This document shows positions 7,231 through 58,128 of a stretch of 64,000 nt of DNA, piece after piece. The translations under genes were made by a program, and so were the position numbers. Numbering within the stretch: position 1 is the first letter of the stretch; every line of letters begins with the position of its first letter. The notes below the pieces were generated by a model that saw only the letters and a list, made by a program, of their open reading frames with translations, was not told the origin of the DNA and made no database searches. The stretch is taken from positions 41-64,040 of the forward strand of contig CAMDGB010000009.1 of the NCBI GenBank assembly GCA_945897915.1. The letters are read 5' to 3'. The stretch comes from Chryseobacterium gleum (GTDB lineage Bacteria; Bacteroidota; Bacteroidia; Flavobacteriales; Flavobacteriaceae).

Positions 7231-7265
7231 GGGTATAGGGTGTGTGGTTTTGGGTAAAGGGGTTT
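7231..7265. repeat. Degenerate period-7 G-rich tandem array
   Basis: GGGTATA GGGTGTG TGGTTTT GGGTAAA GGGGTTT read directly. Confidence 0.6.
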
Positions 7266-7276
7266 TAAATTAAAAA

Positions 7277-7303
7277 TTACGATTTACGATTTACGATTTA
7301 CGA
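7277..7303. repeat. Heptamer tandem repeat (TTACGAT)x3 + TTACGA
   Basis: Perfect repeat read directly. Confidence 0.95.
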
Positions 7304-7410
7304 ATATTTAAATTGGGTAATTTTAACTATATAAGGCATATAAGTTAGTTTAAGGTTTGGGGAATGGGGTTTTAAATTATGAGTTGTTTATTTTCATTTG
7401 AATTTTTTAC

Positions 7411-7435
7411 ACCCCTAAAGTCCCCTCAAGGGGAC
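7411..7435. repeat. GC-rich palindrome ACCCCTAAA-GTCCCCT-CA-AGGGGAC (REP-like)
   Basis: Perfect 7-bp inverted repeat 7420-7426/7429-7435 in AT-rich intergenic DNA. Confidence 0.7.
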
Positions 7436-7457
7436 AATTCCTGCTATTGACTTTTTT

Positions 7458-7488
7458 ACTCATTGACTCATTGACTCATTGACTCATT
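7458..7488. repeat. Octamer tandem repeat (ACTCATTG)x3 + ACTCATT
   Basis: Perfect repeat read directly. Confidence 0.95.
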
Positions 7489-7559
7489 ACTTCCACGGCT
7501 TCGCCTGGTCAGTCCCGTTTTTGGGCCAACAATTTTTATTATAAACCTAGTTGGTTTAT

Positions 7560-8066
7560 TTATTCTTGTTGAAAAACCAATACGCCATCGCCTTCATACA
7601 ACTTGGTAATATGAAACGTGATGGTTTTTTGAATTTCGGTTTCAATTTTTGGTTTCAACTGTGCTAGGTACAATTGGTCAACTTCATCGCCTTCAATCAC
7701 TACATCTATTTGGCCCGAATCGATGCCTTTTGCGTAATCGCCTATTAAAAAAACACGGTCGATTGAACCAATTCTATCTACAATTGATTCAATAATATCA
7801 TCTAACCCAATGTGTTTTCTCACTATTTGTTGCAATAATGAGAAAAAAGGGTGTTGCTTATTTGCTTTATAAATAACTTTTGCTTCTTGCTCCTTGCGAA
7901 TAATAAACCCTGCTTCGGTCAGGTTGTTCAATTCTTTACGGATGGCGTTGGTGTTTTCGTGCATTTCTGTAGCTAGTCCTCTCAAATAGCCGTCATTTGC
8001 AGTATTAATGAAAAACTTCACTAATAAGCGCAATCTGGTTTTTGAGGTAATTAAATTCGCTAACAT
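7560..8066 (-). CDS. wHTH (ArsR-like) regulator fused to a minimal-nucleotidyltransferase-like domain
   Basis: N-terminal SKTRLRLL...YLRGLA...NAIRKELNNLTEAGFI wHTH; C-terminal VFLIGDYAKGIDSGQIDVVIEG resembles the MNT G[SD]xAxG...DxD motif. Confidence 0.7.
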   Translation of the reverse strand: MLANLITSKTRLRLLVKFFINTANDGYLRGLATEMHENTNAIRKELNNLTEAGFIIRKEQEAKVIYKANKQHPFFSLLQQIVRKHIGLDDIIESIVDRIGSIDRVFLIGDYAKGIDSGQIDVVIEGDEVDQLYLAQLKPKIETEIQKTITFHITKLYEGDGVLVFQQE

Positions 8067-8085
8067 ACATATTGGTTTTGAACAA

Positions 8086-8093
8086 CAAAAGTA
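8086..8093 (-). promoter_or_regulatory. Bacteroidota -7 promoter element (TACTTTTG)
   Basis: Matches TAnnTTTG, 19 nt upstream of the ATG at 8066. Confidence 0.6.
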
Positions 8094-8150
8094 CTCGTTT
8101 TTTTATATTAAAAAAAGATTTTACTAAAAATTAGATTCGTTTTCTAAATG

Positions 8151-8423
8151 TTAATTGATGGTGTTTTGGTTTTTAAGCCTTTTATTGAAGTTTTTTATGT
8201 GTTGTTTTAACATGTTTTTGTCTTCTATAGACAGCCTAACTCTTTTTATAGTTAGATTTTTATAGGTCACTTTTAGATAAAAGGTCCGGTACCATTTTTT
8301 AGTTACGCCTATTCGTTTTAAAAAATAAGTATCTTTAAACTCAATTGCTGTTTTACTAATGGTTGGCCAAAGTAGAATTGGTATACATTTTTTAAATATA
8401 ACAAATACTTCTTCTTCTGTCAT
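8151..8423 (-). CDS. Hypothetical basic protein, 90 aa
   Basis: ATG start with a TATATTTG -7 box at 8452-8459 on the same strand; no family recognised. Confidence 0.4.
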   Translation of the reverse strand: MTEEEVFVIFKKCIPILLWPTISKTAIEFKDTYFLKRIGVTKKWYRTFYLKVTYKNLTIKRVRLSIEDKNMLKQHIKNFNKRLKNQNTIN

Positions 8424-8659
8424 TTTGTAAATTTATGTGGGTTTATATCTACAAATATAAAAAAAAATAGTAGGCTATGCCGGTTATGTTAGGCCATCTT
8501 TAGCCCATCTATACTTTGGTTTTTACTTGTTACTGCGCCAAACGGCCCTAATTGACTTCAAATCAATACTTTAAATGTTTTAGGAATGTTTTATTTCGTA
8601 TAAAAAAGTTTGTTTTGCTTTCGCCTCTAAGAAAATTCAATTTATTTCAATATTCCTAA

Positions 8660-9141
8660 TCTTTCTCAGGAACAATTTACCTTGCTGGTTATAATGTAAC
8701 GCAAAACCGGGGCGTAATTTATGGGTTCGTCAAATGGAAGCGGGTTGCAATACTTCCTGAAACTTGTTAAATCAAAGAGTATTATAATTTAATAAGCAAA
8801 GAATTGGCTTCAAGTTTTGGCGTTACCAAAAATATTGATGCAAAAGTATAGGATATAAAAATTGAAATTGCCAATCTATTGATCTCGTTCATTAAAAACC
8901 ACCCCTGGTATCCTTCGCAAAAGATTACGAAAGAAAAAAACCACTATTCCCTACATTTTACCAGTGGCATCAATAGAAAATTGGTTGGTTAGGCTTGTGG
9001 AGGTGCAACATTAAAATAATTTATCCGGCCATTTTGCAAGAGTATTACAAAAAACCCCTGCGAAAAATACAATTAATTTTAATAAATCAAATCCGCTTAG
9101 TGTTCCGCAATATATTTGTAAATGCATCGGAAGAAATATAA
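8660..9141 (+). pseudogene. Degraded WYL/WCX-domain transcriptional regulator
   Basis: Manual translation gives GTIYLAGYNV...SFGVTKNIDAKV*DIKIEI...KNHPWYPSQKIT...GINRKLVG/WLGLWRCNIKIIYPAILQEYY, resembling the WYL C-terminal extension. Stops at 8768 and 8849 and a frameshift at 8981-8992. Confidence 0.6.
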
Positions 9142-9270
9142 TTTTTGAATTAAAATAAAAGATAAACTAAAAAAAACAGGACTATGTGTAAAATCAATGC
9201 CAATAATGTTTACTTTTAACTTCATTTTTAACCTGTGTACCCTAAAGTACTAGCTCAAAAATATTGAATT

Positions 9271-9996
9271 ATGTTTTGGATTTCAAAAAAAACTGTATCC
9301 TATAGTGAAGTATGGAAAGAGGGTTTTGTAGACCTACACAACCATTTATTACCCGGCATTGATGATGGAGCAAAAACCATAGCCGATACGCTTGACATGA
9401 TAGAAGCCATGCAAGAACTAGGTATTACTGAAGCCATTGCCACGCCGCACTCGTATCCGGGGATGTGGGCCAACACAAAAACCACCATCACCGAAGCCTA
9501 TGCAACAGTACCCCATGACTTTATTACCGGTTGCAGCAGTGAGTATTTTGCCGATAGTTCCTTAGTAGATCTGATGAACAACAAGGAATTATTGCCCTTA
9601 CCAAACAACCATTTACTGATTGAGTTTAGCATGATGAGCGCGCCCGTTTCGGGTTTGATGGATGTGCTTTTTACCTTAAAATTGAAAGGCTACCGTCTGA
9701 TTTTGGCTCACCCAGAGCGTTATTTGTACTGGGATACTAATTTGGTCATGTTTGAAGAATTGAAATCGTTTGATTTGGAATTCCAAATGAACGCGCTTTC
9801 TTTATTAGGCTTTTATGGCGATCGTTGCAAAAAAGTAGCCGAACATTTATTATCCGAAAATTACTACGGCTATCTGGGAACCGATTTCCACAACCTGCAC
9901 CACATTCACTACGCTAAAAATCATGCGTTTGCAGAAAAACACTTGAAAAACGTGATGCACTTGGTACAAGCCAATCAAACGTTTAGCTTAAAATAA
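9271..9996 (+). CDS. wzb: PHP-family tyrosine-protein phosphatase (CpsB/CapC/YwqE type)
   Basis: DLHNHLLPGIDDG, ATPH, LAHPERY, GTDFH motifs; adjacent to wzc. Confidence 0.92.
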   Translation: MFWISKKTVSYSEVWKEGFVDLHNHLLPGIDDGAKTIADTLDMIEAMQELGITEAIATPHSYPGMWANTKTTITEAYATVPHDFITGCSSEYFADSSLVDLMNNKELLPLPNNHLLIEFSMMSAPVSGLMDVLFTLKLKGYRLILAHPERYLYWDTNLVMFEELKSFDLEFQMNALSLLGFYGDRCKKVAEHLLSENYYGYLGTDFHNLHHIHYAKNHAFAEKHLKNVMHLVQANQTFSLK

Positions 9997-10010
9997 CACC
10001 CTTATACCAC

Positions 10011-10058
10011 AACAAAGAGCTACTATTGATCATCATGATCGCATAGTAGCTCTTTGTT
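10011..10058. terminator. Bidirectional intrinsic terminator between phosphatase and wzc
   Basis: 16-bp perfect inverted repeat AACAAAGAGCTACTAT / ATAGTAGCTCTTTGTT between convergent genes. Confidence 0.85.
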
Positions 10059-10070
10059 TTTTATAGTATA

Positions 10071-12467
10071 TTACGCCTTTTTAAACCATTTTTTTATGGT
10101 AGACCAAATACTTCTTTTATGACGTCTTTTGGTTTGATCTGCACCATAGCCATACCCGTAACCGTAGTTGTATTTGTAACTGTAGGAATAGCCATAGCCG
10201 TATTTATAACCATACCTTTTTTGCTGTCCTATATTGTTCAACACAATCCCTGCATTTTTGATTTTCTTCAAGGCTTGTAATTCGTTGATGAAGTGCAGCA
10301 AGTTCTTTTCAGTATGGTTGGCGCGGATCACAAAAACCATCATATCCGACAAGTTGGCAATCAAAGTGGTATCGGTTACCAATAAGGTTGGTGCGGTATC
10401 AACTAAAACATAGTCGTACTCTTTTTTCAATTCTTCCAGCAACAACTCAAAACGACCGTTGGACAACAACTCAGCCGGATTGGGCGGAATGGTTCCCGAA
10501 AAAATAAAATCCAATTTCAAATTATACTTCGCCCCTTTTTCGATGATATCGTCGAGTTGGGTCACCGTATCATGCAAATAATTGGTCACCCCTTTTTGGT
10601 GTCTGGAGATGTTCAACATCTTGTGCAACTGCGGATTTCTTAAATCGGCTCCTACCAAGATTACTTTTTTACCCAAGGTAGAAAATGTGATGGCCAAATT
10701 CATCGATACAAAGGTCTTCCCTTCCCCTTTGATGGTGGATGTGGTAAAGATGACTTGCGAAGCTTTGTTGTCTTTTATTAAGTAATTCAAATTGGTACGT
10801 AACATTCGGAACGCTTCGGATAAAACCGAACGGTCCAAATATTTGACCATTTTTTCGTCATCCGTAATGTGCGGAATCTCTGCAATCACCGGAATCTCTT
10901 TCACTACCGCTTGTACGTCTTTTTTACTGTGGATTTTAGTATCCATCATAAAATAGATATAAATAATTCCTAAAGGAATCCCTATCCCTAACAATAATGC
11001 GGCTAAATAAATAATGGCGTGTTTTGGACTGATGGGCACATCCACTGATTTGGCAAAATCCACCATCTTAATCGATGGATTGATGATCGCCAAGTTCACG
11101 GCAGCTTCTTCGCGTTTTTGCAATAAAATGATGTACAATGCTTCTTTTATTTCTTGTTGCCGCTCGATGGAACGAATGGCCTTTTCTTGAAACGGTAAGG
11201 CGGCATATTGTTGCGATTGCCCCAAACTGATCTGGCTGATGGCCGCAATTTTAGATTGCAACACTTTCATGTAAGTAGCTAAGGAAACCTTAATGTTTTT
11301 TTTGAGTTCCTTTTGGGTCTCTTTCAATTCCAACACGGCCGGGTGGTTTTCTCCTACCGATTGTAACAATTTCTGTTGTTTCAACACCAATTCGTTGTAT
11401 TGATCGATGATGGTAGCTACTTCCACTTGTTCTAATCCAATATTAGCAGGTAGCAGGTCATTGGATTTGGTTTTCCCCAAGGTTTCAATTAAGATTTCAC
11501 TCAATACCGCTTGGGTTTTGGCGGCATTCAATTCGCCTTTGGTGCCCGATTTTGAGGCCAAAAGCACTCCGGCATCGGCTTGAAAATTGGCCAAATTTTC
11601 TTTTTGCTTGTAATTGGCTTTATCTTTTTCTATCGAATCCAATTCTTTGAATAAAAATCCAAAACGTTCGTTGACAAAATTCACTGTTTTTTGGTGCACC
11701 AATCGGCGGTCATTAACCCCGTCTTGGTCAAATACTGCCGCCAGCATGTTGGCAATATCGGCGGCTTTTTTAGGATGGTTTGCCGAAACCGACAAGCGCA
11801 ACAATTCACTTTGCTTACCTACTGGCGTTACCGTTAATTGTGATTTCACCATTTGTATGGCGCGTTCTTTCTTTATTTTGACAATTTTATAATCGCCCAC
11901 TATTTTTTTAGCGGCAACTTCTTTTAAAAGTACGTAAAAGGGATGTCTTTTATAGGTGTACGTTGTTCCATAGCTTTTTAATTCTTTACTCCCTTCTATA
12001 TAGTATCCTTTTGGTGTCAATTCAAGGGAGAAGCCAATTCCTATTTCATTCACCTTTTCTGGTAGTTCGGTCCAATGTAGGGTAAACGGTGCCGTAGCGC
12101 CTATTTCAGTTTCCTTTATGTTCCCTTTGGTATAATATAGATTTTGAAGATCTAGGGTGTCCACTACTTTTTCAATCAACAAGGAAGATTGCAAGACCTC
12201 GGTTTCGTTTTCTAAATTAATTTTTCCTTTAGAAAAAAACGACATGGCATCCGTAGGCATTTTAAACCCTGAATTGTTGTTGTCTAATATTTTAACCACA
12301 TTGGAAGCTTGGTACACTTCTTGTGAATAGCGCAGGTAGAAGAAAGCAATCGTAAATGATAATATCGCGCCTAAAACAATCCAATGTAAAAAAGCGAGGT
12401 ATTTAAATATAAGCTCTTTAATATCTATCGAAGTAGACTGATTTTCTTGAAATTCTGATGACTGCAT
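10071..12467 (-). CDS. wzc: BY-kinase/polysaccharide co-polymerase Wzc
   Basis: Two TMs flanking a coiled-coil periplasmic region, Walker A GEGKT, VGADLR, VDTAP, C-terminal Tyr cluster. Confidence 0.95.
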   Translation of the reverse strand: MQSSEFQENQSTSIDIKELIFKYLAFLHWIVLGAILSFTIAFFYLRYSQEVYQASNVVKILDNNNSGFKMPTDAMSFFSKGKINLENETEVLQSSLLIEKVVDTLDLQNLYYTKGNIKETEIGATAPFTLHWTELPEKVNEIGIGFSLELTPKGYYIEGSKELKSYGTTYTYKRHPFYVLLKEVAAKKIVGDYKIVKIKKERAIQMVKSQLTVTPVGKQSELLRLSVSANHPKKAADIANMLAAVFDQDGVNDRRLVHQKTVNFVNERFGFLFKELDSIEKDKANYKQKENLANFQADAGVLLASKSGTKGELNAAKTQAVLSEILIETLGKTKSNDLLPANIGLEQVEVATIIDQYNELVLKQQKLLQSVGENHPAVLELKETQKELKKNIKVSLATYMKVLQSKIAAISQISLGQSQQYAALPFQEKAIRSIERQQEIKEALYIILLQKREEAAVNLAIINPSIKMVDFAKSVDVPISPKHAIIYLAALLLGIGIPLGIIYIYFMMDTKIHSKKDVQAVVKEIPVIAEIPHITDDEKMVKYLDRSVLSEAFRMLRTNLNYLIKDNKASQVIFTTSTIKGEGKTFVSMNLAITFSTLGKKVILVGADLRNPQLHKMLNISRHQKGVTNYLHDTVTQLDDIIEKGAKYNLKLDFIFSGTIPPNPAELLSNGRFELLLEELKKEYDYVLVDTAPTLLVTDTTLIANLSDMMVFVIRANHTEKNLLHFINELQALKKIKNAGIVLNNIGQQKRYGYKYGYGYSYSYKYNYGYGYGYGADQTKRRHKRSIWSTIKKWFKKA

Positions 12468-12473
12468 AAAAGC

Positions 12474-14519: not shown

Positions 14520-14978
14520 TTAACGATTTATAATTAATCGGATTCCTAAAGATTTTATTATTAAAGTTACTTTGTTTGTTGAAACTTTATCCACTACTGC
14601 CATTTGGTTTTTAAATGGCCCTTCATTAATTTGAATTTGCGCATTGGTCGTCCAGGTTTCTATGTCAACTTTTACTACCGGCGTGGCCAATTGTGTTTTT
14701 AATGCCTCTATTTCTTGGGATTTAATTATTGCTGGTTTGCCTAACCAAAACACATATTGCACTACACCAGCTACTTGAAATACGTCCTTTCGATTTGCTT
14801 CCTCAATTTTTACAAATACATAAGAAGGAATTAGGGGTGATTCTACCTTTTTTTTTCGATCAGACCATTGTTTAAGGGTGGTTACTATCGGACAATATAC
14901 CTCTATACCAATAGCAGCAAGGTTTTCAGCCACCTTTTTTTCATTACGTGGTTTTGTATATAAAGCAAACCATTCCAT
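14520..14978 (-). CDS. upxY: UpxY-family (NusG-like) antiterminator
   Basis: WFALYTKPRNEKK NGN start, VESPLIPSYVFV, C-terminal KOW-like INEGPFKN; heads the glycan locus. ATG 14978 preferred over track start 15005. Confidence 0.92.
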   Translation of the reverse strand: MEWFALYTKPRNEKKVAENLAAIGIEVYCPIVTTLKQWSDRKKKVESPLIPSYVFVKIEEANRKDVFQVAGVVQYVFWLGKPAIIKSQEIEALKTQLATPVVKVDIETWTTNAQIQINEGPFKNQMAVVDKVSTNKVTLIIKSLGIRLIINR

Positions 14979-15042
14979 CTTGAATACATTTAATAAAATA
15001 AGCACCTGGTAAAGCTGCTTTTCATTTTTATTGTTTATACTA

Positions 15043-16059: not shown

Positions 16060-16062
16060 ATT

Positions 16063-28455: not shown

Positions 28456-28476
28456 CTACGATTTGGGATTTACGAA
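28456..28476. repeat. Short degenerate heptamer array CTACGAT TTGGGAT TTACGAA
   Basis: Same unit family as 7277 and 32659. Confidence 0.5.
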
Positions 28477-28479
28477 TTA

Positions 28480-31757: not shown

Positions 31758-32606
31758 TTACTTGTTTTTTATGATATAAATATGCGATGAAAACTCGTTT
31801 TTAAAGCATCCTGATACATTTGAAACAAAACCGACTAAAAATCCTTTTACGAAACTCATTTTACCGTTTTTGTATTTTTCTGATAATAAGGAAACATAAA
31901 AACTATCAAACCACATGGGTTTTACTTTTTTCAATTCCATACCAACATCCGAAAATAATCTTTTTATGCTGTTTTTTGAAAAATGCCATAAATGACGAGG
32001 AGCATCATACGCTGCCCAAAAACGATTATAATATTTTGCATCGTAAGATTTATAATTTGGTACAGCAATAATTATGGTTCCGTTTGGCTTAACAATCCGT
32101 TTTAAATTAGTTATGTATTCTGTTAAATTTGGCACGTGTTCTAAAACGTGCCACATAGTAACCACATCAAAAGTGTTTTCTGGTAAAGTAAAAATATCTT
32201 CTGTAAACAAAACGCCTTTTTGATTTGCTAATGCTTTTGCGTCGGAATTAGGCTCGAAACCCAAAATAGTCCAACCTTGGTTTTTGGCTTCCACTAAAAA
32301 ATCACCTGTGCCGCAACCAATATCTAATAAACGCCCTTTGTTATTTTGTTGTTTTGTGATTAAGGCAACCTTGCCTTTAATTGCATTTCGTTTTACTAAA
32401 TGGTATATTTTTTCAAATACTGTTCTTTTGCCATCTGTATGTGAAATATAATCTTCGCTTTCATAATACTTTGGTAAAACAGCTAACGATGGAGTAGGAT
32501 GTGTTTTTAAAATATCATATTCTTTGTTGTATAACAGTGAAAACGTTTCTTTTGAAACGGAATAGTCTTTAACTAATATGAATTGGTTTTCTTCTAAAAA
32601 TTTCAT
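31758..32606 (-). CDS. Class I SAM-dependent methyltransferase
   Basis: LLDIGCGTG, FDVVTMWHVLEHV, IAVPN. Confidence 0.9.
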   Translation of the reverse strand: MKFLEENQFILVKDYSVSKETFSLLYNKEYDILKTHPTPSLAVLPKYYESEDYISHTDGKRTVFEKIYHLVKRNAIKGKVALITKQQNNKGRLLDIGCGTGDFLVEAKNQGWTILGFEPNSDAKALANQKGVLFTEDIFTLPENTFDVVTMWHVLEHVPNLTEYITNLKRIVKPNGTIIIAVPNYKSYDAKYYNRFWAAYDAPRHLWHFSKNSIKRLFSDVGMELKKVKPMWFDSFYVSLLSEKYKNGKMSFVKGFLVGFVSNVSGCFKNEFSSHIYIIKNK

Positions 32607-32636
32607 TTATTCTTTATTTATTGACTTTAACAAAGT

Positions 32637-32652
32637 TGTTTCACGTGGAACC
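32637..32652. promoter_or_regulatory. parS site (TGTTTCACGTGGAACC)
   Basis: 15/16 to the 34607 site read on the reverse strand. Confidence 0.85.
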
Positions 32653-32658
32653 TGAAAA

Positions 32659-32722
32659 TTACGATTTTTGATTTTTGATTTACGAAACGTTTAAATCTCA
32701 AATCCAAAATCTCAAATCGTAA
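32659..32722. repeat. Inverted pair of heptamer arrays
   Basis: TTACGAT TTTTGAT TTTTGAT TTACGAA, 8-nt spacer, ATCTCAA ATCCAAA ATCTCAA ATCGTAA. Confidence 0.85.
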
Positions 32723-32728
32723 ATACAT

Positions 32729-34600
32729 TTATCTTCCCATATGAATTAGTAGCACCGAAACATCACTTGGCGACACGCCGCTAATTCTAGAAGCTTGCGC
32801 AATAGTTGCTGGTCTTATTTTTGTTAGTTTTTGACGTGCTTCAATAGAAATCGCTTTAATTTTATCGAAATCATAGTTGTCTGGAATGCGAACATCTTCA
32901 AGACGTTGCAATTTATCTGCATGGTTTTTTTCTTTTTCTATATATCCAGAATATTTCACTTGAATTTCGGCTTGTTCAATAACCTCCTGATCTAAATTGT
33001 TTTCTGAAATATAATCTGTTACTGCTTTAAATTTTAAAATATCGATTAAATCAATTTGTGGGCGTGAAAAAACTTTAAACATTTTATCGCCTTGCGTCAT
33101 CAAGCTTGATCCTTTTGCTTCTAAAATTGGATTTGCAATTTCGGCTTTAATACTTGTTTCTTTGAAGAAAGTAACGAATTTATCTGATGCGTCTAATTTA
33201 TATTCCATTCGTTTTAAACGATCTGCTTTAGCTAAACCAATAGAAAATCCTTTCGGAGTTAATCTTAAATCGGCATTATCTTGTCGTAATAAAGTTCTAT
33301 ATTCTGCACGAGAAGTAAACATTCTATATGGCTCTTCTGTTCCTTTAGTAATTAAATCATCTATCAGAACGCCAATATAAGCTTCATCTCTTTTTAATAT
33401 TAAAGGTTCTTTTTCTTGAACTTTAAGCGCTGCATTAATTCCAGCCATTAAACCTTGAGAAGCGGCTTCTTCATAACCGGTTGTGCCGTTAATTTGTCCC
33501 GCAAAATACAAACCTTGAATTAATTTGGTTTCTAAAGTGTGTTTTAATTGTGTAGGTGGAAAGTAATCGTACTCGATAGCATATCCAGGGCGAAAAAATT
33601 TTACCTTTTCAAAACCTACTACGGAGCGTAAAGCTTTAAATTGAACATCTTCTGGCAAGGAAGTTGAGAAGCCGTTTACATATACTTCACATGTTTTCCA
33701 ACCTTCAGGTTCAATAAACAGTTGATGGCGTTCTTTATCTGCAAATCGGTTTATTTTGTCCTCGATAGATGGGCAATATCTTGGTCCGATAGATTTAATT
33801 CTGCCATTAAACATTGGGCTTCTGTCAAATCCTTCGCGTAATAAATCATGAACAACCTCGGAAGTATAGGTCATAAAACAAGAGCGTTGTTTCGTTAAAG
33901 GCTTGGTAACATCAGAATACGAAAATTTTGAAGGGTTTAAATCGCCCGGTTGTTCAATCATTTTTGAATAATCTAAAGAACGACCATCTACTCGAGGCGG
34001 CGTACCTGTTTTCATTCTGCCAGATTCAAAACCTAATTTTAGTAAATCTTCTGTAATTCCAAAAGAAGCACTTTCGCCGGCACGACCTCCTCCAAATTGT
34101 TTGTCGCCAATATGAATTAAACCATTTAAAAAGGTGCCATTTGTAAGTACAACAGTTTTGGCTATAATCTCTAATCCAAGAGAAGTTTTGATGCCTTTAA
34201 TTTGATTTTCTTCTGTTATAATCCCGGAAACCATTTCTTGATAGAAATCTAAATTGGGCGTGCCTTCTAACATCATTCTCCATTCTTCAGCAAAACGCAT
34301 CCTGTCTGATTGGCATCGGGGCGACCACATAGCCGGTCCCTTAGAAAGATTAAGCATTTTAAATTGTATGGCCGTGTTGTCAGAAACAATTCCTGAATAT
34401 CCTCCCAAAGCGTCAATTTCACGAACAATTTGACCTTTTGCGATACCTCCCATAGCTGGATTACAAGACATTTGGGCAATGTTTTGCAAATTCATAGTAA
34501 CCAGTAACGTACTGCAGCCCATGTTAGCCGCAGCCGCAGCGGCCTCACAGCCTGCATGTCCGGCGCCTACAACAATTACATCATATTTTTCTTGAAACAT
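32729..34600 (-). CDS. mnmG: tRNA uridine 5-carboxymethylaminomethyl modification enzyme MnmG (GidA)
   Basis: VVGAGHAGCEAA, MSCNPAMGG, GPRYCPSIEDK, FAGQINGTTGYEEAA. Confidence 0.98.
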   Translation of the reverse strand: MFQEKYDVIVVGAGHAGCEAAAAAANMGCSTLLVTMNLQNIAQMSCNPAMGGIAKGQIVREIDALGGYSGIVSDNTAIQFKMLNLSKGPAMWSPRCQSDRMRFAEEWRMMLEGTPNLDFYQEMVSGIITEENQIKGIKTSLGLEIIAKTVVLTNGTFLNGLIHIGDKQFGGGRAGESASFGITEDLLKLGFESGRMKTGTPPRVDGRSLDYSKMIEQPGDLNPSKFSYSDVTKPLTKQRSCFMTYTSEVVHDLLREGFDRSPMFNGRIKSIGPRYCPSIEDKINRFADKERHQLFIEPEGWKTCEVYVNGFSTSLPEDVQFKALRSVVGFEKVKFFRPGYAIEYDYFPPTQLKHTLETKLIQGLYFAGQINGTTGYEEAASQGLMAGINAALKVQEKEPLILKRDEAYIGVLIDDLITKGTEEPYRMFTSRAEYRTLLRQDNADLRLTPKGFSIGLAKADRLKRMEYKLDASDKFVTFFKETSIKAEIANPILEAKGSSLMTQGDKMFKVFSRPQIDLIDILKFKAVTDYISENNLDQEVIEQAEIQVKYSGYIEKEKNHADKLQRLEDVRIPDNYDFDKIKAISIEARQKLTKIRPATIAQASRISGVSPSDVSVLLIHMGR

Positions 34601-38439: not shown

Positions 38440-38505
38440 TTTAAAATTCAAATTTCCAAATTTTGATGTATTTGGAATTTGGAATTTTACATTTGGAATT
38501 TTAAA
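38440..38505. repeat. Inverted pair of TTTGGAA-type heptamer arrays
   Basis: TTTAAAA TTCAAA T TTCCAAA ... TTTGGAA TTTGGAA TTTTACA TTTGGAA TTTTAAA. Confidence 0.7.
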
Positions 38506-41087: not shown

Positions 41088-41097
41088 TAAATGTTAG

Positions 41098-41122
41098 AAT
41101 CTGAAACAAGTTCAGATTGACA
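41098..41122 (-). repeat. REP-like palindrome copy
   Basis: Reverse complement TGTCAATCTGAACTTGTTTCAGATT. Confidence 0.8.
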
Positions 41123-41188
41123 AAACCAAACCATCAATTTTTTAATTGGTGGTTTTTTTATGATGCAAAAACAAAAAAAGAAATAAAA

Positions 41189-47311: not shown

Positions 47312-47995
47312 TTTTATTCTTAATATTCATTAAAAGTACAAAGAAGAAATTAGAAATAAGAATTAAGTAGTAAGATTTAATAAAATTTTAATATTCTATA
47401 AAAACAATAGTTTTCAACATATATTAAAAACAACAAAAAAAGATTTTAATTAAATTTAAATTATTGATGGTTATTATAGCGTGTTAATATGTAGTATAAT
47501 ATTATTTTTAAATATTGTTTTTAAAATTTATAGATAGTTATACAAAGTAATAAACAATGTAAATTTATTGTAAAGTATTCTTTTCTAATGCTTTTAAATT
47601 TTATTTTTAAATATTATCAACACATGTTAAAATCTGAATCTAATAGTTTTTTGTACATAACTAAGTTTTGCTTTTTTGTTGATAACCTTTAAAAAACTAT
47701 TCATAAAAAAACAATAAGATGTAATAACTAAATTTTGATTTTAAATTTAAGATTTGCATTACGTTTTTTGTTTTTATAAAAAAAAAAACTTGTTATTTTC
47801 TATCTTTAGTTATGAACAAGTAATATTAAATTAACATTAACTGATTATCAATCAATTACATTATTTTATTAACATTGGTGTTTTTTGCATTAATTACATA
47901 GCAAAAAAGAAAAAATAATAATTACAAATTTACTTTACGAAACGCTACATATTGATTATTTTTGTAAAACGATATTAACAACTCAATACACAATT
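47312..47995. other. Candidate chromosomal replication origin (oriC)
   Basis: 684-bp gene-free, very AT-rich interval with TTATCAACA at 47614 and its reverse at 47677, TTATGAACA 47810, TTATTAACA 47866, TTTTCAACA 47411; gene orientation switches here; parS cluster and mnmG 13-15 kb away. Confidence 0.65.
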
Positions 47996-50631: not shown

Positions 50632-50671
50632 TTTGTTCTATATTTGAAAAAAAACTAAAAAAAATAAAAAT

Positions 50672-51016: not shown

Positions 51017-51067
51017 ATAGATGAAAATTAAATAAAAAATCTAAAAAAAAATTTCTAAATTTAAAAT

Positions 51068-51099
51068 AAAAATGTCCCGAAAGATATCGGGACATTTTT
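51068..51099. terminator. Bidirectional terminator with TCCCGA/TCGGGA core
   Basis: AAAAATGTCCCGA-AAGATA-TCGGGACATTTTT between convergent genes. Confidence 0.85.
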
Positions 51100-51289
51100 A
51101 TTTTTTATCATTTTCTAAATCATCTTCTTTTTTAGTTGCTGCAGCTTCATCCTCTCCTTTAGCTGCTTTTTTAAATTCTTTTATGCCGCTTCCTAAACCT
51201 TTCATTAACTCTGGAATTTTTTTTCCTCCAAACATTAACAAAATAAAGGAAACAATCAATATCATTTCGAACGGTCCTATTCTTCCCAT
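51098..51289 (-). CDS. tatA: Twin-arginine translocase subunit TatA/E
   Basis: TM helix, [23 protein letters not shown]. Confidence 0.95.
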
Positions 51290-51374
51290 AACAATTAATT
51301 ATTAATTTATACTACAAAGGTACATAAAAAATCAAAACACAAATAAAATTATTCTTTTTTATTGATATAACTTG

Positions 51375-51420
51375 TCCCGAATCTCGGGATTTACTAATTG
51401 GCACATTGACTAATTGTATT
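51375..51420. repeat. TCCCGA-ATC-TCGGGA palindrome followed by ATTG octamer array
   Basis: Palindrome 51375-51389; ATTGGCAC ATTGACTA ATTGTATT 51397-51420. Confidence 0.65.
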
Positions 51421-51443
51421 ATATTTGTATAAAATCAGGCGAT

Positions 51444-51923: not shown

Positions 51924-51934
51924 ATCCGACTATT

Positions 51935-53419
51935 ATGTCAATAAAAGCATTTGCAGCTAAAATACTTGCCAAATACTCGCACTTACAAACTCAAAAATGG
52001 GCAAATTCTCCTGTTGCTACTCAAGAAAAAGTTTTTCAATCTTTATTAAGTAAAGCGAAAAACACGCAATTTGGAAAAGATCATGATTTTTCAAATATCA
52101 AATCATTTAAAGATTTTGCCAAACAAGTTCCAGTTCGAGATTACGAACAATTGAAGTCGTACATTGATAAAGTTGTAGCTGGCGAATCGGATATTTTATG
52201 GATTGGAAAACCATTGTATTTTGCCAAAACATCTGGAACTACATCGGGCGCTAAATATATTCCGCTCACAGCAGCATCAATGCCGTTTCATATTCAAGCT
52301 GCAAAAAATGCTATTTTAAGTTACATTCACGAAACAGGAAACGCTGATTTTGTTGACGGAAAAATGATTTTTTTACAAGGAAGTCCAGAAATGGAAGAAA
52401 AAAGCGGAATCAAATTAGGCAGACTTTCTGGAATTGTAGCGCATTATGTGCCCAAATATTTACAAAAAAACCGATTACCAAGTTGGAAAACCAATTGCAT
52501 TGAAGATTGGGAAACCAAAGTCGATGCCATTGTAGAAGAAACCATTCATCAAAATATGACGGTGATTTCAGGCATTCCAAGTTGGGTGCAAATGTATTTC
52601 GAAAAATTAAAAACAAAATCTAATTTGCCTGTTGGCGATTTATTTAAAGATTTCAATTTATTTATTTATGGCGGGGTGAATTATGAACCTTATCGAGCTA
52701 AATTTGAACAATTAATTGGCAGAAAAGTAGATTCGATTGAATTATTTCCTGCTTCCGAAGGGTTTTTTGCCTATCAAGATTCGCAAACCGAAAAAGGAAT
52801 GTTATTACTTCTGAATTCTGGTATTTTTTATGAATTTATTAAAGCAGATGATTTTTTCACCGAAAAACCTAAACGACTGACAATTAGCGAAGTAGAAATT
52901 AACGTAAGTTATGTTTTAATTATTTCTACCAACGCCGGACTTTGGGCATACAATATTGGCGACACAATTGCGTTTACTTCTACAAAACCGTACAGAATTA
53001 TTGTTACAGGAAGAATCAAACACTACATCTCCGCTTTTGGCGAACATGTGATTGGAAAAGAAGCGGAAAACGCCCTTCAAATTGCTATTTTAGGAACAAA
53101 TATAAGTGTAAATGAGTTTACTGTCGCCCCACAAATTAATCCAAAAAGCGGTTTGCCTTATCACGAATGGTTTATAGAATTTGATTCGGAGCCAGAAGAT
53201 TTAGAAGCTTTTGCATTAAAAATTGATACAACAATGCGCCAACAAAATGTGTATTACGACGATTTGATAAAAGGCAACGTGTTGCAAACTATTCTAATTA
53301 CGAAAGTGGCAAAAAATGGTTTTCAAGAGTATATGAAATCTATCGGAAAATTAGGCGGACAAAACAAATTACCCAGATTAAGTAACGATAGAAAAATTGC
53401 TGATTTTTTAACGATGTAA
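51935..53419 (+). CDS. GH3 auxin-responsive-promoter family acyl-acid amido synthetase-like protein
   Basis: TSGTTSGAKYIP (ANL P-loop), PVRDYEQL, ASEGFF, YNIGDT, QNKLPRL. Confidence 0.9.
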   Translation: MSIKAFAAKILAKYSHLQTQKWANSPVATQEKVFQSLLSKAKNTQFGKDHDFSNIKSFKDFAKQVPVRDYEQLKSYIDKVVAGESDILWIGKPLYFAKTSGTTSGAKYIPLTAASMPFHIQAAKNAILSYIHETGNADFVDGKMIFLQGSPEMEEKSGIKLGRLSGIVAHYVPKYLQKNRLPSWKTNCIEDWETKVDAIVEETIHQNMTVISGIPSWVQMYFEKLKTKSNLPVGDLFKDFNLFIYGGVNYEPYRAKFEQLIGRKVDSIELFPASEGFFAYQDSQTEKGMLLLLNSGIFYEFIKADDFFTEKPKRLTISEVEINVSYVLIISTNAGLWAYNIGDTIAFTSTKPYRIIVTGRIKHYISAFGEHVIGKEAENALQIAILGTNISVNEFTVAPQINPKSGLPYHEWFIEFDSEPEDLEAFALKIDTTMRQQNVYYDDLIKGNVLQTILITKVAKNGFQEYMKSIGKLGGQNKLPRLSNDRKIADFLTM

Positions 53420-53513
53420 ATGAAGAATTTATTAACTTTCTATACACAAAAAGCGAACGAAAACGGACTAAAGAATAAATTTATTACCTTTGTAGGTGAT
53501 ATAATAAAAATTA

Positions 53514-55199
53514 ATGAGAGACATTAAAAACATTTCGCGTTCTCGGGCGCAAGAATCGTCGGCAGCTATCGAACGATTGTACATTACTATGCGACACCTA
53601 TTTAACAGAGGTTTTTACAAACCAATGGGTGTTTCAGGCGAAACCTTACGTGAAGCTTTATTATCTTTACGACCAGAAATTTATGGTTCTATCGCAGAAG
53701 AAAAAGTAGAGTTAAACGGATTATTATACGTCATTGAGCGTTTACCAGTAGGAATCGAGCAGTGTCGTTATATTAATTTAACTTCGGATGAAGGGTATGC
53801 GAATTCGCACTTTAAAGCCATTGTTCCGCCAAAAAGAAGAAGAAATTGTTATCGTATAGATGACGAGCAAATGAATATTGAAATTACCCGTGGCCGTTCA
53901 GATATTTACGATATTTTAACGCATTTAACGTTTATTTTCATAGAATCGCACAAAATTAAAGACCGTGTTTTAATTGACGATGAAGGTTTGGTGTCTCGCG
54001 ATTGGGAAAAACTTGCACAATTTGCACTTCAAACTAAAAAATTATCACCAGTAGATAGAGAAATTGCGATGTCTCATGCAGCTAATGTATTGGGAAGAAC
54101 CTTTTCAGAAGTTCAAGACATTTATGAAAGCTTTGCTACAACAGAAGCACCAGAACGTTTTTTACAAATTGTATATTGGTTAGGAAAAATTGCAATTGAA
54201 GAAATTGTAGATAATAACAAACGCACCATTACTTTTAGTCCGATTTTAAGAGAACGATTAGGCCATCATATTTATGGTGAAATTTGGGCCAACAACATCA
54301 AAGAAACGCTTAGCAAAAACAATTTATTAGAAAGACCCATTCATGTGATTAGTGCAAATATGCATAGTGTGATGAATTCGATTTTTGCACCTGCAGTTTT
54401 AGCGACAAAATACAAAGAGAAAGAAGCATTTCAAATTTATGAAGATTTAAGTTCGTCGGCACATAAAGACTTACGAAAAAAAGTAGAGGATGTGGCTTTA
54501 CAAAACGGCATGATTTCATTGCCAGACACTTCAGGAACCAATATTGACGTACAAATTTTTGATACTGCAAAATTCGATTGGAAAAAAACAGCCTTTCCTT
54601 CGGTTACTACAAAAGACAAACCGGTTCTTATTGTTATGGATTATGCTTTTGGCGAACAAGCTTACGAAACTATTGATGAACTTTTAAAACCTTATAAAGT
54701 AGATAAAACCAAAATATTATTAAATGTTGAATCGGTTTCTATAATGGGTAAAGCCGGAATTTTAGAAGGCGGCAAAGGCGACATTATGATTCCTAACGCA
54801 CACGTAAATGAAGGCACAGCAGATAATTATCATTTCCAAAACGAACTTACAAAAGAAATGTTCGAAGGAAATGGAATACCCGTTTTTTCAGGCCCAATGA
54901 TTACAGTTTTAGGAACGTCTTTACAAAATAGAGATTTACTTAAATTTTTCCACGAATCCACCTGGGAAGCCATTGGTTTAGAAATGGAAGGATCGTATTA
55001 TCAAAAAGCCATTCAATCCGCTTCAAGAATTAGAAAAAGTATAAACACAAATGTAAAAGTAAGATATGCCTATTATGCCTCAGACAACCCTTTAGAAACA
55101 GGAAGCACATTAGCTTCTGGAGGTTTAGGAACCACTGGTGTAAAACCAACGTATTTAATTACTATTAAAATATTAGAACAAATTTTTAACGTAAACTAA
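53514..55199 (+). CDS. Uncharacterised protein (DUF6909-like) with C-terminal nucleoside phosphorylase/AMP nucleosidase-like fold
   Basis: IMGKAGILEGGKGDIMIP, AIGLEMEG, YASDNPL resemble PNP/Amn motifs; own TACCTTTG box at 53485-53492. Confidence 0.6.
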   Translation: MRDIKNISRSRAQESSAAIERLYITMRHLFNRGFYKPMGVSGETLREALLSLRPEIYGSIAEEKVELNGLLYVIERLPVGIEQCRYINLTSDEGYANSHFKAIVPPKRRRNCYRIDDEQMNIEITRGRSDIYDILTHLTFIFIESHKIKDRVLIDDEGLVSRDWEKLAQFALQTKKLSPVDREIAMSHAANVLGRTFSEVQDIYESFATTEAPERFLQIVYWLGKIAIEEIVDNNKRTITFSPILRERLGHHIYGEIWANNIKETLSKNNLLERPIHVISANMHSVMNSIFAPAVLATKYKEKEAFQIYEDLSSSAHKDLRKKVEDVALQNGMISLPDTSGTNIDVQIFDTAKFDWKKTAFPSVTTKDKPVLIVMDYAFGEQAYETIDELLKPYKVDKTKILLNVESVSIMGKAGILEGGKGDIMIPNAHVNEGTADNYHFQNELTKEMFEGNGIPVFSGPMITVLGTSLQNRDLLKFFHESTWEAIGLEMEGSYYQKAIQSASRIRKSINTNVKVRYAYYASDNPLETGSTLASGGLGTTGVKPTYLITIKILEQIFNVN

Positions 55200-55203
55200 G
55201 AAC

Positions 55204-56160
55204 ATGAGCACAAATTCTCAAGAGCAGGAAATTGATTTAAGCCAAATCGGTAAAAGTATTTCAAAAGGGTTTAAAAAAGGAATAAATAAGTGTTTCGATT
55301 TGTTGTTTTTTATACAAAAGAAACTAGTAATTGTGTTTGTTTTATTGGTTTTTGGAGGCGGTTTAGGTTTTTATGTAGACAAAGAACCAAATTACACTAA
55401 TGACATTACTGTTTTTCCAAATTTTGGGAGTAACGAGTATTTGTACGATAAAATAAATTTAATTTCTTTAAAATTAAAAGAAAAAGACGAAGCGTTTTTT
55501 ACTAAAATAGGAATTAAAAACATTAAAGATTTTATTTCTATTGAAATTCAACCCGTAAACGGAATTTATAATTTTATAAATTCGGAAAGTCAAAAAAACA
55601 ATTTTGAACTGGTTAAATTAATGGCTGAGGATGGTGATTTAGAAAAAATAATTCAGGATCAAACTACCAGTAAAAACTACTATTTACACGGCATAAATAT
55701 TAAAACAGCCATAGCTTATCAACAAAAAGACTTAATAGACCCTATATTAAACTATTTACAGCAGTCGGAATATTTTATTAAACTTCAGAAAATTCAACAA
55801 AATAATTTAGAAGAAAAATTAGTAGCTAATAAGTTATTAATTACTCAGATTGATCAAATTGTTTCAAGTTTAAGTCAAAATAAAATAGGAAGCAGTGTTT
55901 CAATATCAGAAAACACAGGTATAAATGATCTTATTCAAAAAAAGGACAATTTAATTTTTGAAAACCAAAAATTAGCCACCAACCGATTAGAGTTTGAAAA
56001 AATAATTAAAGACCAAGATATAGTATCAAACCAAATGAATACAAGCGGAGCAAACAACAAAGTGAAATTTATTTTACCGTTATTATTTGTTTTATTTTAT
56101 TTATTATGGTATTGGTTTTCAAAAGTATATAAACAACAAAAACAACGCATTCAAGCATAA
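55204..56160 (+). CDS. Wzz-like chain-length determinant
   Basis: EIDL N-terminal motif, one TM near each terminus, coiled-coil periplasmic region; stop overlaps rfbB start. Confidence 0.55.
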   Translation: MSTNSQEQEIDLSQIGKSISKGFKKGINKCFDLLFFIQKKLVIVFVLLVFGGGLGFYVDKEPNYTNDITVFPNFGSNEYLYDKINLISLKLKEKDEAFFTKIGIKNIKDFISIEIQPVNGIYNFINSESQKNNFELVKLMAEDGDLEKIIQDQTTSKNYYLHGINIKTAIAYQQKDLIDPILNYLQQSEYFIKLQKIQQNNLEEKLVANKLLITQIDQIVSSLSQNKIGSSVSISENTGINDLIQKKDNLIFENQKLATNRLEFEKIIKDQDIVSNQMNTSGANNKVKFILPLLFVLFYLLWYWFSKVYKQQKQRIQA

Positions 56161-57167
56161 TGAAAAATATTTTAGTTACTGGCGGAGCCGGGTTTATTGG
56201 CGCGAACTTTGTTCCTTATTTTATAGTAAATAATCCTGATTATCATTTAATAAATTTAGACGCATTAACTTATGCAGGAAATTTAGAAAACATATCAGAA
56301 GTGGAAAATCATGAACGTTATACCTTTGTAAAAGGTGATATTGTAGATGGAGAATTCATAAAAAACCTATTCGAAAAATATCAATTTCATGATGTAATTC
56401 ATTTTGCCGCAGAAAGTCATGTTGATAATTCTATTTCTGGTCCAGAAGCGTTTATTAAAACCAATGTTTTAGGAACTTTTAATTTATTAGATACCGCCAG
56501 AAAACTTTGGATGACAGCACCTAATCAATACAAACCAGAATTTATAAATGCCCGTTTTCATCATGTTTCTACTGATGAGGTTTATGGAACATTAGGCGAA
56601 ACAGGTTTATTTGAAGAAACTACGCCTTATGCGCCAAACAGCCCATATTCAGCATCAAAAGCAGGTTCAGACATGATTGTTCGAAGCTATTTTCATACCT
56701 ACGGCATGAATGTGGTTACCTCAAATTGTTCCAATAATTACGGTCCAAAACAACATAACGAAAAGTTAATCCCTACTATAATTCGTAAAGCATTAACTGG
56801 AGAAAACATTCCAATTTATGGTGACGGAAAGAATGTACGTGATTGGTTATATGTTTTAGACCATTGTAAAGGAATTGAATTGGCTTTTAAAACCGGTAAA
56901 TCTGGTGAAACATACAATATTGGAGGAAGAAACGAACGTAATAATTTACAAATTGTAGATACCGTTTGTATCATCTTAAACCAATTAAAACCAAAAGCAA
57001 CAGGTAAGTACCAAGACCAAATTACCTTTGTAAAAGACCGCCCTGGTCACGATTTAAGATATGCTATTGACGCTACTAAAATCGAAATAGAACTAGGTTG
57101 GAAAGCAGATGAAAATTTCGAAACAGGAATTAAAAAAACAATTGAATGGTATATTAATAAGTTTTAA
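56160..57167 (+). CDS. rfbB: dTDP-glucose 4,6-dehydratase
   Basis: TGGAGFIG, HFAAESHVDNS, VSTDEVYG, YSASK, DRPGHDLRY. Confidence 0.97.
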   Translation: MKNILVTGGAGFIGANFVPYFIVNNPDYHLINLDALTYAGNLENISEVENHERYTFVKGDIVDGEFIKNLFEKYQFHDVIHFAAESHVDNSISGPEAFIKTNVLGTFNLLDTARKLWMTAPNQYKPEFINARFHHVSTDEVYGTLGETGLFEETTPYAPNSPYSASKAGSDMIVRSYFHTYGMNVVTSNCSNNYGPKQHNEKLIPTIIRKALTGENIPIYGDGKNVRDWLYVLDHCKGIELAFKTGKSGETYNIGGRNERNNLQIVDTVCIILNQLKPKATGKYQDQITFVKDRPGHDLRYAIDATKIEIELGWKADENFETGIKKTIEWYINKF

Positions 57168-57173
57168 GCTAGG

Positions 57174-57226
57174 AGTTAATAGTTGATAGTTCAACTTTTC
57201 ACTTTTCACTTTTCACTTTTCACTTT
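57174..57226. repeat. Head-to-head heptamer arrays (AGTTRAT)x2-AGTT / (ACTTTTC)x4-ACTTT
   Basis: Read directly between the rfbB stop and rfbA start. Confidence 0.9.
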
Positions 57227-57233
57227 AAAATTT

Positions 57234-58091
57234 ATGAAAGGAATTATACTAGCCGGTGGCTCAGGAACACGTTTACATCCTTTAACTTTAGCGGTAAGTA
57301 AACAATTAATGCCAATTTACGACAAACCCATGATTTATTATCCATTATCAACTTTGATGTGGGCAGGAATCAACGAAATATTAATTATTTCTACACCGCA
57401 CGATTTGCCTTTATTCCAACATTTATTAGGCGACGGAAGTAGTTTAGGATGTAAATTTGAATACGCAGTACAAGAGCATCCGAACGGATTGGCCGAAGCA
57501 TTTATTATTGGAAAAGAATTTGTAGGTAACGACAAAGTTGCTTTAGTTTTAGGCGACAATATTTTTTACGGAACAGGATTGGCCGAATTATTACAAGCAA
57601 ACAATAATCCAGACGGTGGAATTGTTTACGCTTATCATGTACACGATCCTGAACGTTACGGCGTAGTAGAATTTGACACAACCGGAAAAGTGCTTTCAAT
57701 TGAAGAAAAGCCAACAAGGGCAAAATCAAATTATGCAGTTCCGGGGATTTATTTCTACGATAATTCTGTAATAGAAATTGCGGCAAATATACAACCAAGT
57801 CACCGCGGCGAATTAGAGATTACCGATATCAACAAAGCTTATCTAGAACAAGGAAAATTAAAAGTAAGTATTTTAGACAGAGGAACTGCGTGGTTAGACA
57901 CCGGAACATTTCAATCGTTAATGCAAGCCGGACAGTTTGTTCAGGTAATTGAAGAACGCCAAGGATTAAAAATCGGAGCCATTGAAGAAGCGGCATACAA
58001 AATGGGTTTCATCAATGCAGACCAGTTGAAAAAACTAGCCGAACCTTTATTGAAAAGCGGTTACGGAACACATTTAATAAGTATTATTTAA
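57234..58091 (+). CDS. rfbA: Glucose-1-phosphate thymidylyltransferase
   Basis: [44 protein letters not shown]. The track's 17-codon extension is the repeat array. Confidence 0.97.
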
Positions 58092-58096
58092 AATTA

Positions 58097-58128
58097 ATTG
58101 GCACATTGCCACATTGTCAAATTGAATA
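58097..58128. repeat. Octamer array ATTGGCAC ATTGCCAC ATTGTCAA ATTGAATA
   Basis: Fills most of the rfbA-rfbC gap; 14 nt identical to 51395-51408. Confidence 0.75.

Follow-up and report, generated by a model that had tools for sequence, protein, structure and literature searches.

We analyzed the tandem arrays of 7- and 8-base units that lie at the gene junctions of a 64,000-nucleotide stretch of bacterial DNA (hereafter the window), and the small four-helix-bundle (4HB) genes with which arrays of this kind go together in other genomes. The window corresponds to positions 41–64040 of contig C9 in a genome of 2.14 Mb (57 contigs, 99.9% complete) that we call G000; the other genomes, contigs, and loci are referred to by G, C, and L numbers, respectively. 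The arrays were checked by Tandem Repeats Finder (TRF, score 30) and by direct reading. Most of the sites listed in a preliminary description of this DNA were confirmed, with the sites at 7231, 28456, and 51395 being weak and consisting of 2 to 3 degenerate units. All window arrays are gene-less, and comprise solo arrays, compound arrays, and 2 array hairpins. No strand is assigned to the features at 7231–7488, 28456–28479, 38440–38505, and 51375–51416. The first one is a degenerate, G-rich heptamer-like run (7231–7265) located directly 5' of the start codon of the gene at 6807–7223 (minus strand); it is weak and has no TRF row at score 30, and a similar ACCC-type run precedes a start codon elsewhere in the genome (C13:46715). 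Next to it lie a perfect TTACGAT × 3.9 heptamer array of the AAATCGT family (7277–7303, TRF) and an octamer array composed of ATTGACTC × 5.4 (7446–7488, TRF). A GC-rich hairpin, GTCCCCTCAAGGGGAC (7420–7435), adjoins this octamer array and resembles the palindromes present around DUF559 genes in relatives. A capsule/glycan locus typical of Bacteroidota surrounds these first arrays and includes genes for a CpsB-like phosphatase (9271–9996, plus strand), a Wzz/tyrosine-kinase-like protein (10071–12467, minus strand), and an UpxY-family antiterminator (14520–15005, minus strand). Further downstream, a gap between convergent genes contains a weak 3-unit array of the AAATCGT/AAATCCC family (28456–28479, no TRF row at score 30) with a terminator-like hairpin after it, and BLAST links this array to arrays on contigs C24, C27, and C37.

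Three loci had been described as arrays facing each other in opposite orientation, and 2 of them are real hairpins, detected by TRF and reading. The gene-less inverted heptamer pair at 32659–32685 (left arm) and 32692–32724 (right arm), on the minus strand, separates the co-directional gidA-like (32729–34600, minus strand) and methyltransferase (31758–32606, minus strand) genes, and its sense-strand RNA folds with −20.1 kcal/mol (z −3.6 vs shuffles). In a gap between divergent genes, AAATTCC units (38440–38466) face GGAATTT units (38470–38505), and the RNA fold of this gene-less pair gives −18.0 kcal/mol (z −3.0 vs shuffles). The third locus (57174–57226, plus strand, TRF and reading) has no facing pair but a small palindrome beside a direct array. 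It is a compound array in the rmlB-rmlA spacer, formed by TAGTTGA/TAGTTCA units followed by perfect ACTTTTC × 4.7 (57194–57226), and is 97% identical to G016:C3:60422–60459. The rmlA-rmlC spacer holds an ATTG-anchored octamer array (58095–58124, plus strand, TRF and reading), with ATTGCCAC-type units × 3.5 at 58097–58124, that has AATTGGCACATTG in common with the right arm of the 4HB cassette of G040 described below. In the gap between tatA (minus strand) and a 159-amino acid gene (plus strand), direct reading detected a GC-rich hairpin, TCCCGAATCTCGGGA (51375–51389), and a short ATTG-anchored octamer array (51395–51416), which is weak: its 2 to 3 units are degenerate, and TRF gives no row for it at score 30. 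The recurrence of units between loci that had been noticed beforehand was borne out: the 14-mer TAATTGGCACATTG is identical at 51395–51408 and 58095–58108, and units of the TTACGAT/AAATCGT type are found at 7277, 28456, and 32659 of the window and at 8 high-confidence loci across G000. Both GC-rich hairpins, GTCCCCTCAAGGGGAC and TCCCGAATCTCGGGA, are similar to the DUF559-flanking palindromes and adjoin ATTG-type octamer arrays, and a 233-nt composite elsewhere in the genome (C1:129531–129763), with ATTG arms, a similar GC-rich hairpin, and an internal direct repeat of approximately 60 nt, is related to 51375–51416.

The genome-wide scan for periods 7 and 8 proposed in the preliminary description revealed an enrichment of both. 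There were 23 exact arrays with at least 3 copies at period 7, and 5 such arrays at period 8, where order-3 Markov simulations yielded 0.0; G000 has none at periods 9 to 14. When TRF counts were compared with Markov models built separately for coding and for intergenic DNA (the latter being 7.9% of the genome), 59 intergenic arrays were observed at period 7 (6.4 expected), 26 at period 8 (6.6 expected), and 6 at period 14 (0.2 expected), with periods 4 to 6 and 9 to 13 near background. The high-confidence set contains 82 arrays, 64 of them intergenic, and more than 25 canonical units. The intergenic arrays lie between co-directional (42), convergent (13), or divergent (7) gene pairs, often just 5' of start codons, and have a median size of 4.25 units, with 44 of the 64 having 4 to 5 units. 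No strand or sense A/T bias relative to transcription was found (23 vs 19). Units vary from locus to locus, and abutting arrays of unlike units are common. The longest array of the genome (C24:9949–10125), which is annotated as a spurious 192-nt open reading frame (ORF), is a compound of 3 abutting unit types, AATTAGAT, AGCTNNN, and then approximately 17 AAATCGT/AAATCCC units. With their over-representation of 7-base units, intergenic location, and several unit families per genome, the G000 arrays have the properties of the heptamer repeats named short tandemly repeated repetitive (STRR) sequences or long simple sequence repeats (SSRs). Such repeats, known since 1990 and employed for strain typing, lack to our knowledge an accepted origin or role.

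According to the preliminary description, such arrays in Bacteroidota often flank small genes of the TIGR02436-like, GxxExxY, or DUF559 type. This link is strong for the 4HB (TIGR02436) genes. The TIGR02436/PF05635 4HB family is that of the Avd protein of diversity-generating retroelements (DGRs) and of the ORF of 23S rRNA intervening sequences. The family, also called S23p, is widespread, and we know of no role for it outside DGRs and of no catalytic activity of its proteins. All 61 genomes sampled from the genus contain TIGR02436 genes (1 to 14 copies each). In a complete cassette, a gene of approximately 350 bases stands between 2 arms, the right one repeating the units of the left one in inverted orientation. 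Cassettes occupy spacers that separate co-directional genes, and at 24 of 31 loci the cassette gene points the same way as the genes on either side. The arms typically have 3 to 5 tandem units of 7 to 9 bases, occasionally 20 or more. Arrays of such units flank all 30 sampled 4HB genes of the genus, and the pair is clearly inverted in 25 cases and direct in 2. At these 30 loci, the best period was 7 or 8 in 48 of the 59 flanks (81%, vs approximately 20% in shuffles), and arm-to-arm complementarity had a median z of 6.3 in the inverted and of −0.15 in the direct orientation, approximately 78% of the aligned arm positions being Watson-Crick pairs. As a control, 170 other small genes of G000 were analyzed, which had period 7/8 in 25% of their flanks and an inverted z of 0.18.

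G000 itself contains one intact 4HB gene (TIGR02436, C6:14913–15236) and one frameshifted copy (C27:21915–22360), in which positions 1–34 and 35–116 of the hidden Markov model (HMM) fall in different frames and which has long TCTAA-type arrays on both sides. Inverted octamer arrays bracket both loci. Searching G000 with our own HMM and filters off returned only these 2 loci plus marginal matches (E>1). The PDB relatives of the G000 4HB protein, 2GSC and 2RLD, have 5 chains each. Every examined 4HB copy lies between protein-coding genes, and none was found inside a 23S rRNA helix. A restriction to glycan operons, as had been supposed, does not hold, because cassettes occur also at groES-groEL, at a probable accB-accC junction, and beside a hemE-like gene. 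The groES-groEL junction holds them in G007 (L053) and G044 (L056). Xanthomonas (L238) and Stenotrophomonas (L298) carry a cassette at one common junction that resembles accB-accC. Both are core operons with high expression and tight coupling of their genes.

We also looked beyond the genus, in distant genomes picked solely by a scan for GGGGATT × 4 arrays, which gave matches in many phyla. TIGR02436 genes were present in the 10 chosen array-bearing genomes (Nostoc, Oscillatoria, Caldilineaceae, Chitinophaga, Xanthomonas, Stenotrophomonas, Oceanimonas, Akkermansiaceae, Vicinamibacterales, and Thermoguttaceae) but only in 1 of 14 control genomes. Among the 4HB genes of these 10 genomes with readable flanks, nearly all are bracketed by inverted heptamer arrays, whose units vary from one locus to another; only one arm or none was seen at L235, L238, L246, L250, and L251. 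4HB genes and inverted 7/8-base arrays go together in at least 7 bacterial phyla. In a tree of 58 4HB proteins the phyla are interleaved, and both arms have the same period in 38 of the 58 cassettes. Within one host genus, the arm period goes with the lineage of the cassette (8 or 9 in some lineages, mostly 7 in another), and 3 sister pairs have unit types in common (L004/L256, L067/L254, and L237/L248).

The other 2 gene families have repeats of another kind, and among the 3 only the 4HB family goes with arrays of period 7 to 9. GxxExxY genes (PD-(D/E)XK-like) occur in 49 of the 61 genus genomes, and strongly inverted arrays bracket them (median z 12, L258–L281), with units of approximately 10 to 12 bases that have a conserved CRCARAG anchor. 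Stand-alone DUF559 genes in relatives are flanked by GC-rich palindromes. This suggests, by analogy with the repetitive extragenic palindromic (REP) sequences of REP-associated tyrosine transposases (RAYTs), that each small-gene family may have its cognate repeat class. In G000 we found neither GxxExxY nor DUF559 genes nor a reverse transcriptase, and no clear excess of GxxExxY-type periods (6 vs 2.0, 1 vs 0.8, and 2 vs 0.6, all of them small counts). GxxExxY genes occupy the rmlB-rmlA junction in G006, G011, and G053. A motif similar to TA(T/C)ACGCCA(A/T)AA is located 10 to 25 nt 5' of the start codon at 4HB loci L034, L035, and L052 and at GxxExxY loci L260, L266, L268, and L273, and may be an expression signal common to both types of cassettes. 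As a common element upstream of the cassette genes a TACGCCA motif was discarded, since it occurs in only 3 of the 30 4HB loci. The window contains 2 further repeats. One is a 684-nt intergenic region (47312–47995, approximately 25% GC) with several low-complexity tandem repeats (AAATAAG × 5 and 13-mers). The other belongs to a separate REP-like family, unrelated to the 7/8-mer arrays, of palindromic elements of approximately 30 nt with the core GAATCTGAAACAAGTTCAGATTGACAA. Its window copy (41088–41125) matches approximately 19 other intergenic regions (20 BLAST matches, some regions twice), often as inverted doublets similar to REPINs; other copies lie at C16:37990–38089, C19:41806–41973, C19:25821–25966, C2:100697–100865, and C29:16735–16921.

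Comparison of orthologous junctions, also proposed beforehand, revealed filled, array-only, and bare alleles. The rmlB-rmlA spacer measures 8 nt in 2 relatives (L007 and L027) and 15 nt in another one, is array-bearing in others, and holds a 4HB cassette in L004; in G040 it extends to 529 nt and contains, between octamer arms of the ATTG type, a gene with a TIGR02436 score of 97 bits. The rmlA-rmlC spacer has 3 to 12 nt in 11 relatives and bears an array in about 11. The junction of G000's own cassette (J1) gave matches in all 61 genus genomes; among the 53 loci retrieved, about 50 were read across the junction, and 5 more genomes were counted as cassette carriers from contiguous matches alone (approximately 55 in total). 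The J1 alleles comprise approximately 20 cassettes, approximately 20 gene-less array hairpins (82 to 128 nt, with a heptamer-periodic stem of approximately 20 bp), 2 decayed cassettes, and a few short unrelated spacers. Two of the cassettes carry a different 4HB lineage with GTTTAAA arms. In orthologous J1 cassettes the unit anchor varies by genome (CTAAG, CAAAG, or CTGAG) and both arms change together. Depending on the genome or strain, a given junction has or lacks array blocks and cassettes, and the 2 arms of a cassette change together over time. The proposal that the gene-less arrays are empty sites or footprints of an insertion system is not supported: array-only J1 alleles have other unit types than the cassette arms found there, filled versus bare alleles give no sign of a target-site duplication, and the units of gene-less arrays match sampled arms no better than shuffled units do.

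Variation between close strains was analyzed in metagenome contigs encoding a product 100% identical to that of the window gene at 6807–7223. The array at 7277–7303 has one extra 7-base unit in L105 and L111, and the array at 7446–7488 has one extra 8-base unit together with a unit variant in L106, L108, and L109. Arrays change by whole-unit slippage, and copy number varies between close strains (+7 at 7277 and +8 at 7446) as in contingency loci. No length polymorphism was detected at window positions 32607–32728 (6 strain-level contigs), at 51017–51443, or in the 2 rml spacers. The idea that orthologous junctions would differ only in array copy number through plain slippage holds in part, for close strains that differ by one unit, while cassettes and whole blocks are also present or absent. 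On the other side of gene 6807–7223 there is either a 14-nt spacer, as in the window, or a 275-nt block of approximately 22 AACGACC-type units, and hairpin-flanked 4HB genes occur beside this gene on strain-level contigs. In one strain arrangement, the array adjoins a different downstream epimerase. Compared with window 5824–7223, L106, L108, L109, and L110 encode an identical cytidylyltransferase but differ in the downstream glycan module (322- vs 354-amino acid epimerase). The module breakpoint falls at an AACGACC-type array or a 4HB cassette, and the epimerase swap at the array is consistent with recombination between arrays. This arrangement suggests that arrays may mediate glycan module exchange. 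The diversification of glycan operons that the preliminary description had envisaged finds in it a single strain-level case, with arrays at the boundary of the swapped module, on which a possible role of arrays in operon shuffling is based.

Altogether, we are inclined to regard the window arrays as part of a genome-wide STRR-like class that is tied to 4HB cassettes, and to favor slippage combined with a constraint imposed by a pentameric protein as the origin of the period, an explanation that we hold with moderate confidence. The gene-less arrays would be relatives or derivatives of cassette arms, and array blocks would move by homologous recombination and horizontal transfer, without a transposase. 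The Avd protein forms a pentameric barrel in which all 5 protomers contact one RNA stem-loop (10.1101/2023.10.23.563531). By analogy, a pentameric 4HB barrel could bind the arms, as an RNA or single-stranded DNA hairpin, by geometry and not by sequence, with one protomer per unit. Such binding, likened to the grip of 5 Avd protomers on a stem-loop, might keep the arms periodic and complementary. A stronger form of this idea is doubtful, namely that stand-alone Avd-like pentamers bind the heptamer and octamer arrays as their nucleic-acid ligands, and perhaps also produce them, in Cyanobacteria, Bacteroidota, Chloroflexota, Planctomycetota, Verrucomicrobiota, Acidobacteriota, and the Xanthomonadaceae. 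The spacing of barrel protomers would then set the step of 7 to 9 bases, binding to a hairpin or to single-stranded DNA or RNA would promote slippage of units with the arms kept in register, and the protein would "write" and maintain periodic repeats, set by geometry and not by sequence, around its own gene and in trans at further junctions.

Several observations weigh against the tie to 4HB cassettes and its pentamer mechanism. G000 has 64 high-confidence intergenic arrays for one intact and one frameshifted 4HB gene, and a strict inverted partner exists for only 10 of the 82 arrays. Our HMM, with filters off, detected no 4HB remnant at window 7224–7559. The failure of gene-less units to match sampled arms better than shuffled units speaks against gene-less arrays being relics of those arms. 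Pairing between arms has no excess of G:U over A:C (21 vs 48 in cassettes and 24 vs 26 in gene-less hairpins). Because G:U pairs are not in excess over A:C on the sense strand, we do not claim pairing at the RNA level, and an RNA stem under selection was dropped as an explanation. A "one protein, one array" code was likewise rejected, as protein identity and the arm words in common across hosts are uncorrelated (rho 0.001; 236 of 500 permutations reach the observed value). Protein similarity does not predict arm sequence, and therefore any binding must be by geometry, which makes sequence-specific recognition unlikely. The inheritance of period within cassette lineages could be simple descent, and some arms have 13 to 22 units, at odds with a strict limit of 5.

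We next consider explanations that do not need the 4HB protein. According to a hypothesis credited to Mrazek et al. 2007, heptamers are favored by the length of DNA held in the replicative polymerase. The arrays could thus be ordinary slippage-prone microsatellites whose heptamer step is set by the polymerase, with no functional tie to the 4HB family, the cassettes merely carrying inverted repeats that slip. Close strains that differ by exactly one unit, the free drift of unit sequences, and the fact that most G000 arrays are solo and direct, with neither gene nor partner, agree with this explanation, as does the excess of heptamers described in many bacteria and explained in this way (PMC4692102). 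We nonetheless judge it rather unlikely, because it leaves unexplained that period 7/8 occurs in 81% of 4HB flanks versus 25% of control flanks, that units are copied in inverted form between arms, that separate cassette lineages of one genus keep periods of 7, 8, and 9, that all 10 array-selected genomes from 7 phyla have the family versus 1 of 14 controls, and that GxxExxY and DUF559 genes of the same hosts have other repeat classes.

Alternatively, the arrays could be host cis-elements, for instance hairpins that stabilise mRNA or act as terminators, or sites bound by single-strand-binding proteins of the cold shock protein (Csp) or S1 type, where cassettes preferentially insert or persist, so that arrays would be targets and not products. 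Their presence in co-directional spacers, often just 5' of start codons, fits this view, and so do the good folding of the 2 window pairs, the array-only hairpins of J1 with unit types unrelated to the cassette arms there, and the binding of Csp to heptamer repeats with one protein per unit (PMC4679880). However, orthologous junctions are often bare (3 to 21 nt), which leaves no need for a host function at such sites; the units lack sequence conservation; neither a strand bias (23 vs 19) nor a G:U signature was seen; and arms that mirror each other are not expected from insertion into a pre-existing direct array. We thus judge host cis-elements to be rather improbable. That the arrays are accumulated 7- to 8-base target-site duplications from repeated insertion and excision of a transposable element would account for a fixed period with arbitrary units and for compound arrays of abutting unit types, but is very hard to sustain given the inverted arms, the lack of junction duplications in filled versus bare alleles and of an associated transposase, and arrays of 10 to 22 identical units that slippage explains better. 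A repeat-writing process had also been envisaged, and a writer of the reverse-transcriptase kind is unlikely here because G000 has no RVT_1 domain.

With the 2 found together in at least 7 phyla, the unexplained STRR heptamers and a 4HB family without a known role outside DGRs become one question, which is whether the pentamer binds or shapes periodic arms. Operon junctions, including groES-groEL, the probable accB-accC, and those of the rml genes, emerge as recurrent landing places for small selfish cassettes, and annotators gain a simple rule to recognise 4HB cassettes. In our literature search, the coverage of which is incomplete so that an earlier notice is possible, no paper was found that ties these arrays to 4HB genes.

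Among known systems, the cyanobacterial STRR or long SSRs (Nostoc GGGGA(C/T)T, Xanthomonas GGGAATC, and Beggiatoaceae TAACTGA) are, like the G000 arrays, intergenic heptamers of several unit families, mostly of approximately 4 units, with some inverted pairs and a copy number that varies between relatives (PMC4692102, PMC4679880). Published accounts describe a heptamer excess in many bacteria and a polymerase-slippage hypothesis with no link to a gene family (PMC4692102, PMC4679880), whereas the 4HB genes of Nostoc, Oscillatoria, and Xanthomonas are found here to be bracketed by such arrays. In addition, our host belongs to the Bacteroidota (UpxY antiterminator) and is not a filamentous cyanobacterium, and octamers are enriched too. 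REP/RAYT systems (REPINs) have in common with the arrays that short repeats are dispersed in intergenic regions, often as inverted doublets, and invert around a small associated gene. In our case, however, this gene is TIGR02436 and not an IS200/IS605-like Y1 transposase, and the repeat is defined by period and not by a conserved sequence. The arms also differ from transposon footprints or miniature inverted-repeat transposable elements in being inverted without a direct target-site duplication. Integron cassettes with attC sites are similar in having small promoter-poor ORFs, imperfect palindromes conserved in structure and not in sequence, and co-directional insertion, but the 4HB cassettes lack an integrase and a cassette platform, have repeats on both sides of the gene, and are scattered in core operons. 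With the DGRs they have in common a homologous pentameric 4HB barrel, which in Avd grips structured nucleic acid by the same residues of successive protomers; unlike in DGRs, the 4HB genes of G000 stand alone, with no reverse transcriptase (no PF00078 match) and no template/variable repeat pair. Coxiella has an S23p-ORF intervening sequence of 428 nt, a selfish element that possesses a 28-bp terminal stem and is cut by RNase III (PMC4990558). Intervening sequences of this type, in Coxiella burnetii and Leptospira, resemble the cassettes in their size (approximately 430 to 540 nt), in the PF05635/TIGR02436 ORF in the loop, in terminal inverted repeats that can form a stem, and in their sense insertion in a transcribed region (PMC4990558). 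The cassettes differ from them in lying in mRNA spacers, in having slipping 7- to 9-base tandem arrays as arms, in gene-less versions far outnumbering the gene-bearing ones, and in arms without a G:U signature. The ORF is present in the cassettes of G000 (C6 and C27) and relatives and absent from the gene-less arrays of the window. The cassette, with its ORF in the loop and inverted repeats at its ends, has the architecture of a 23S intervening sequence.

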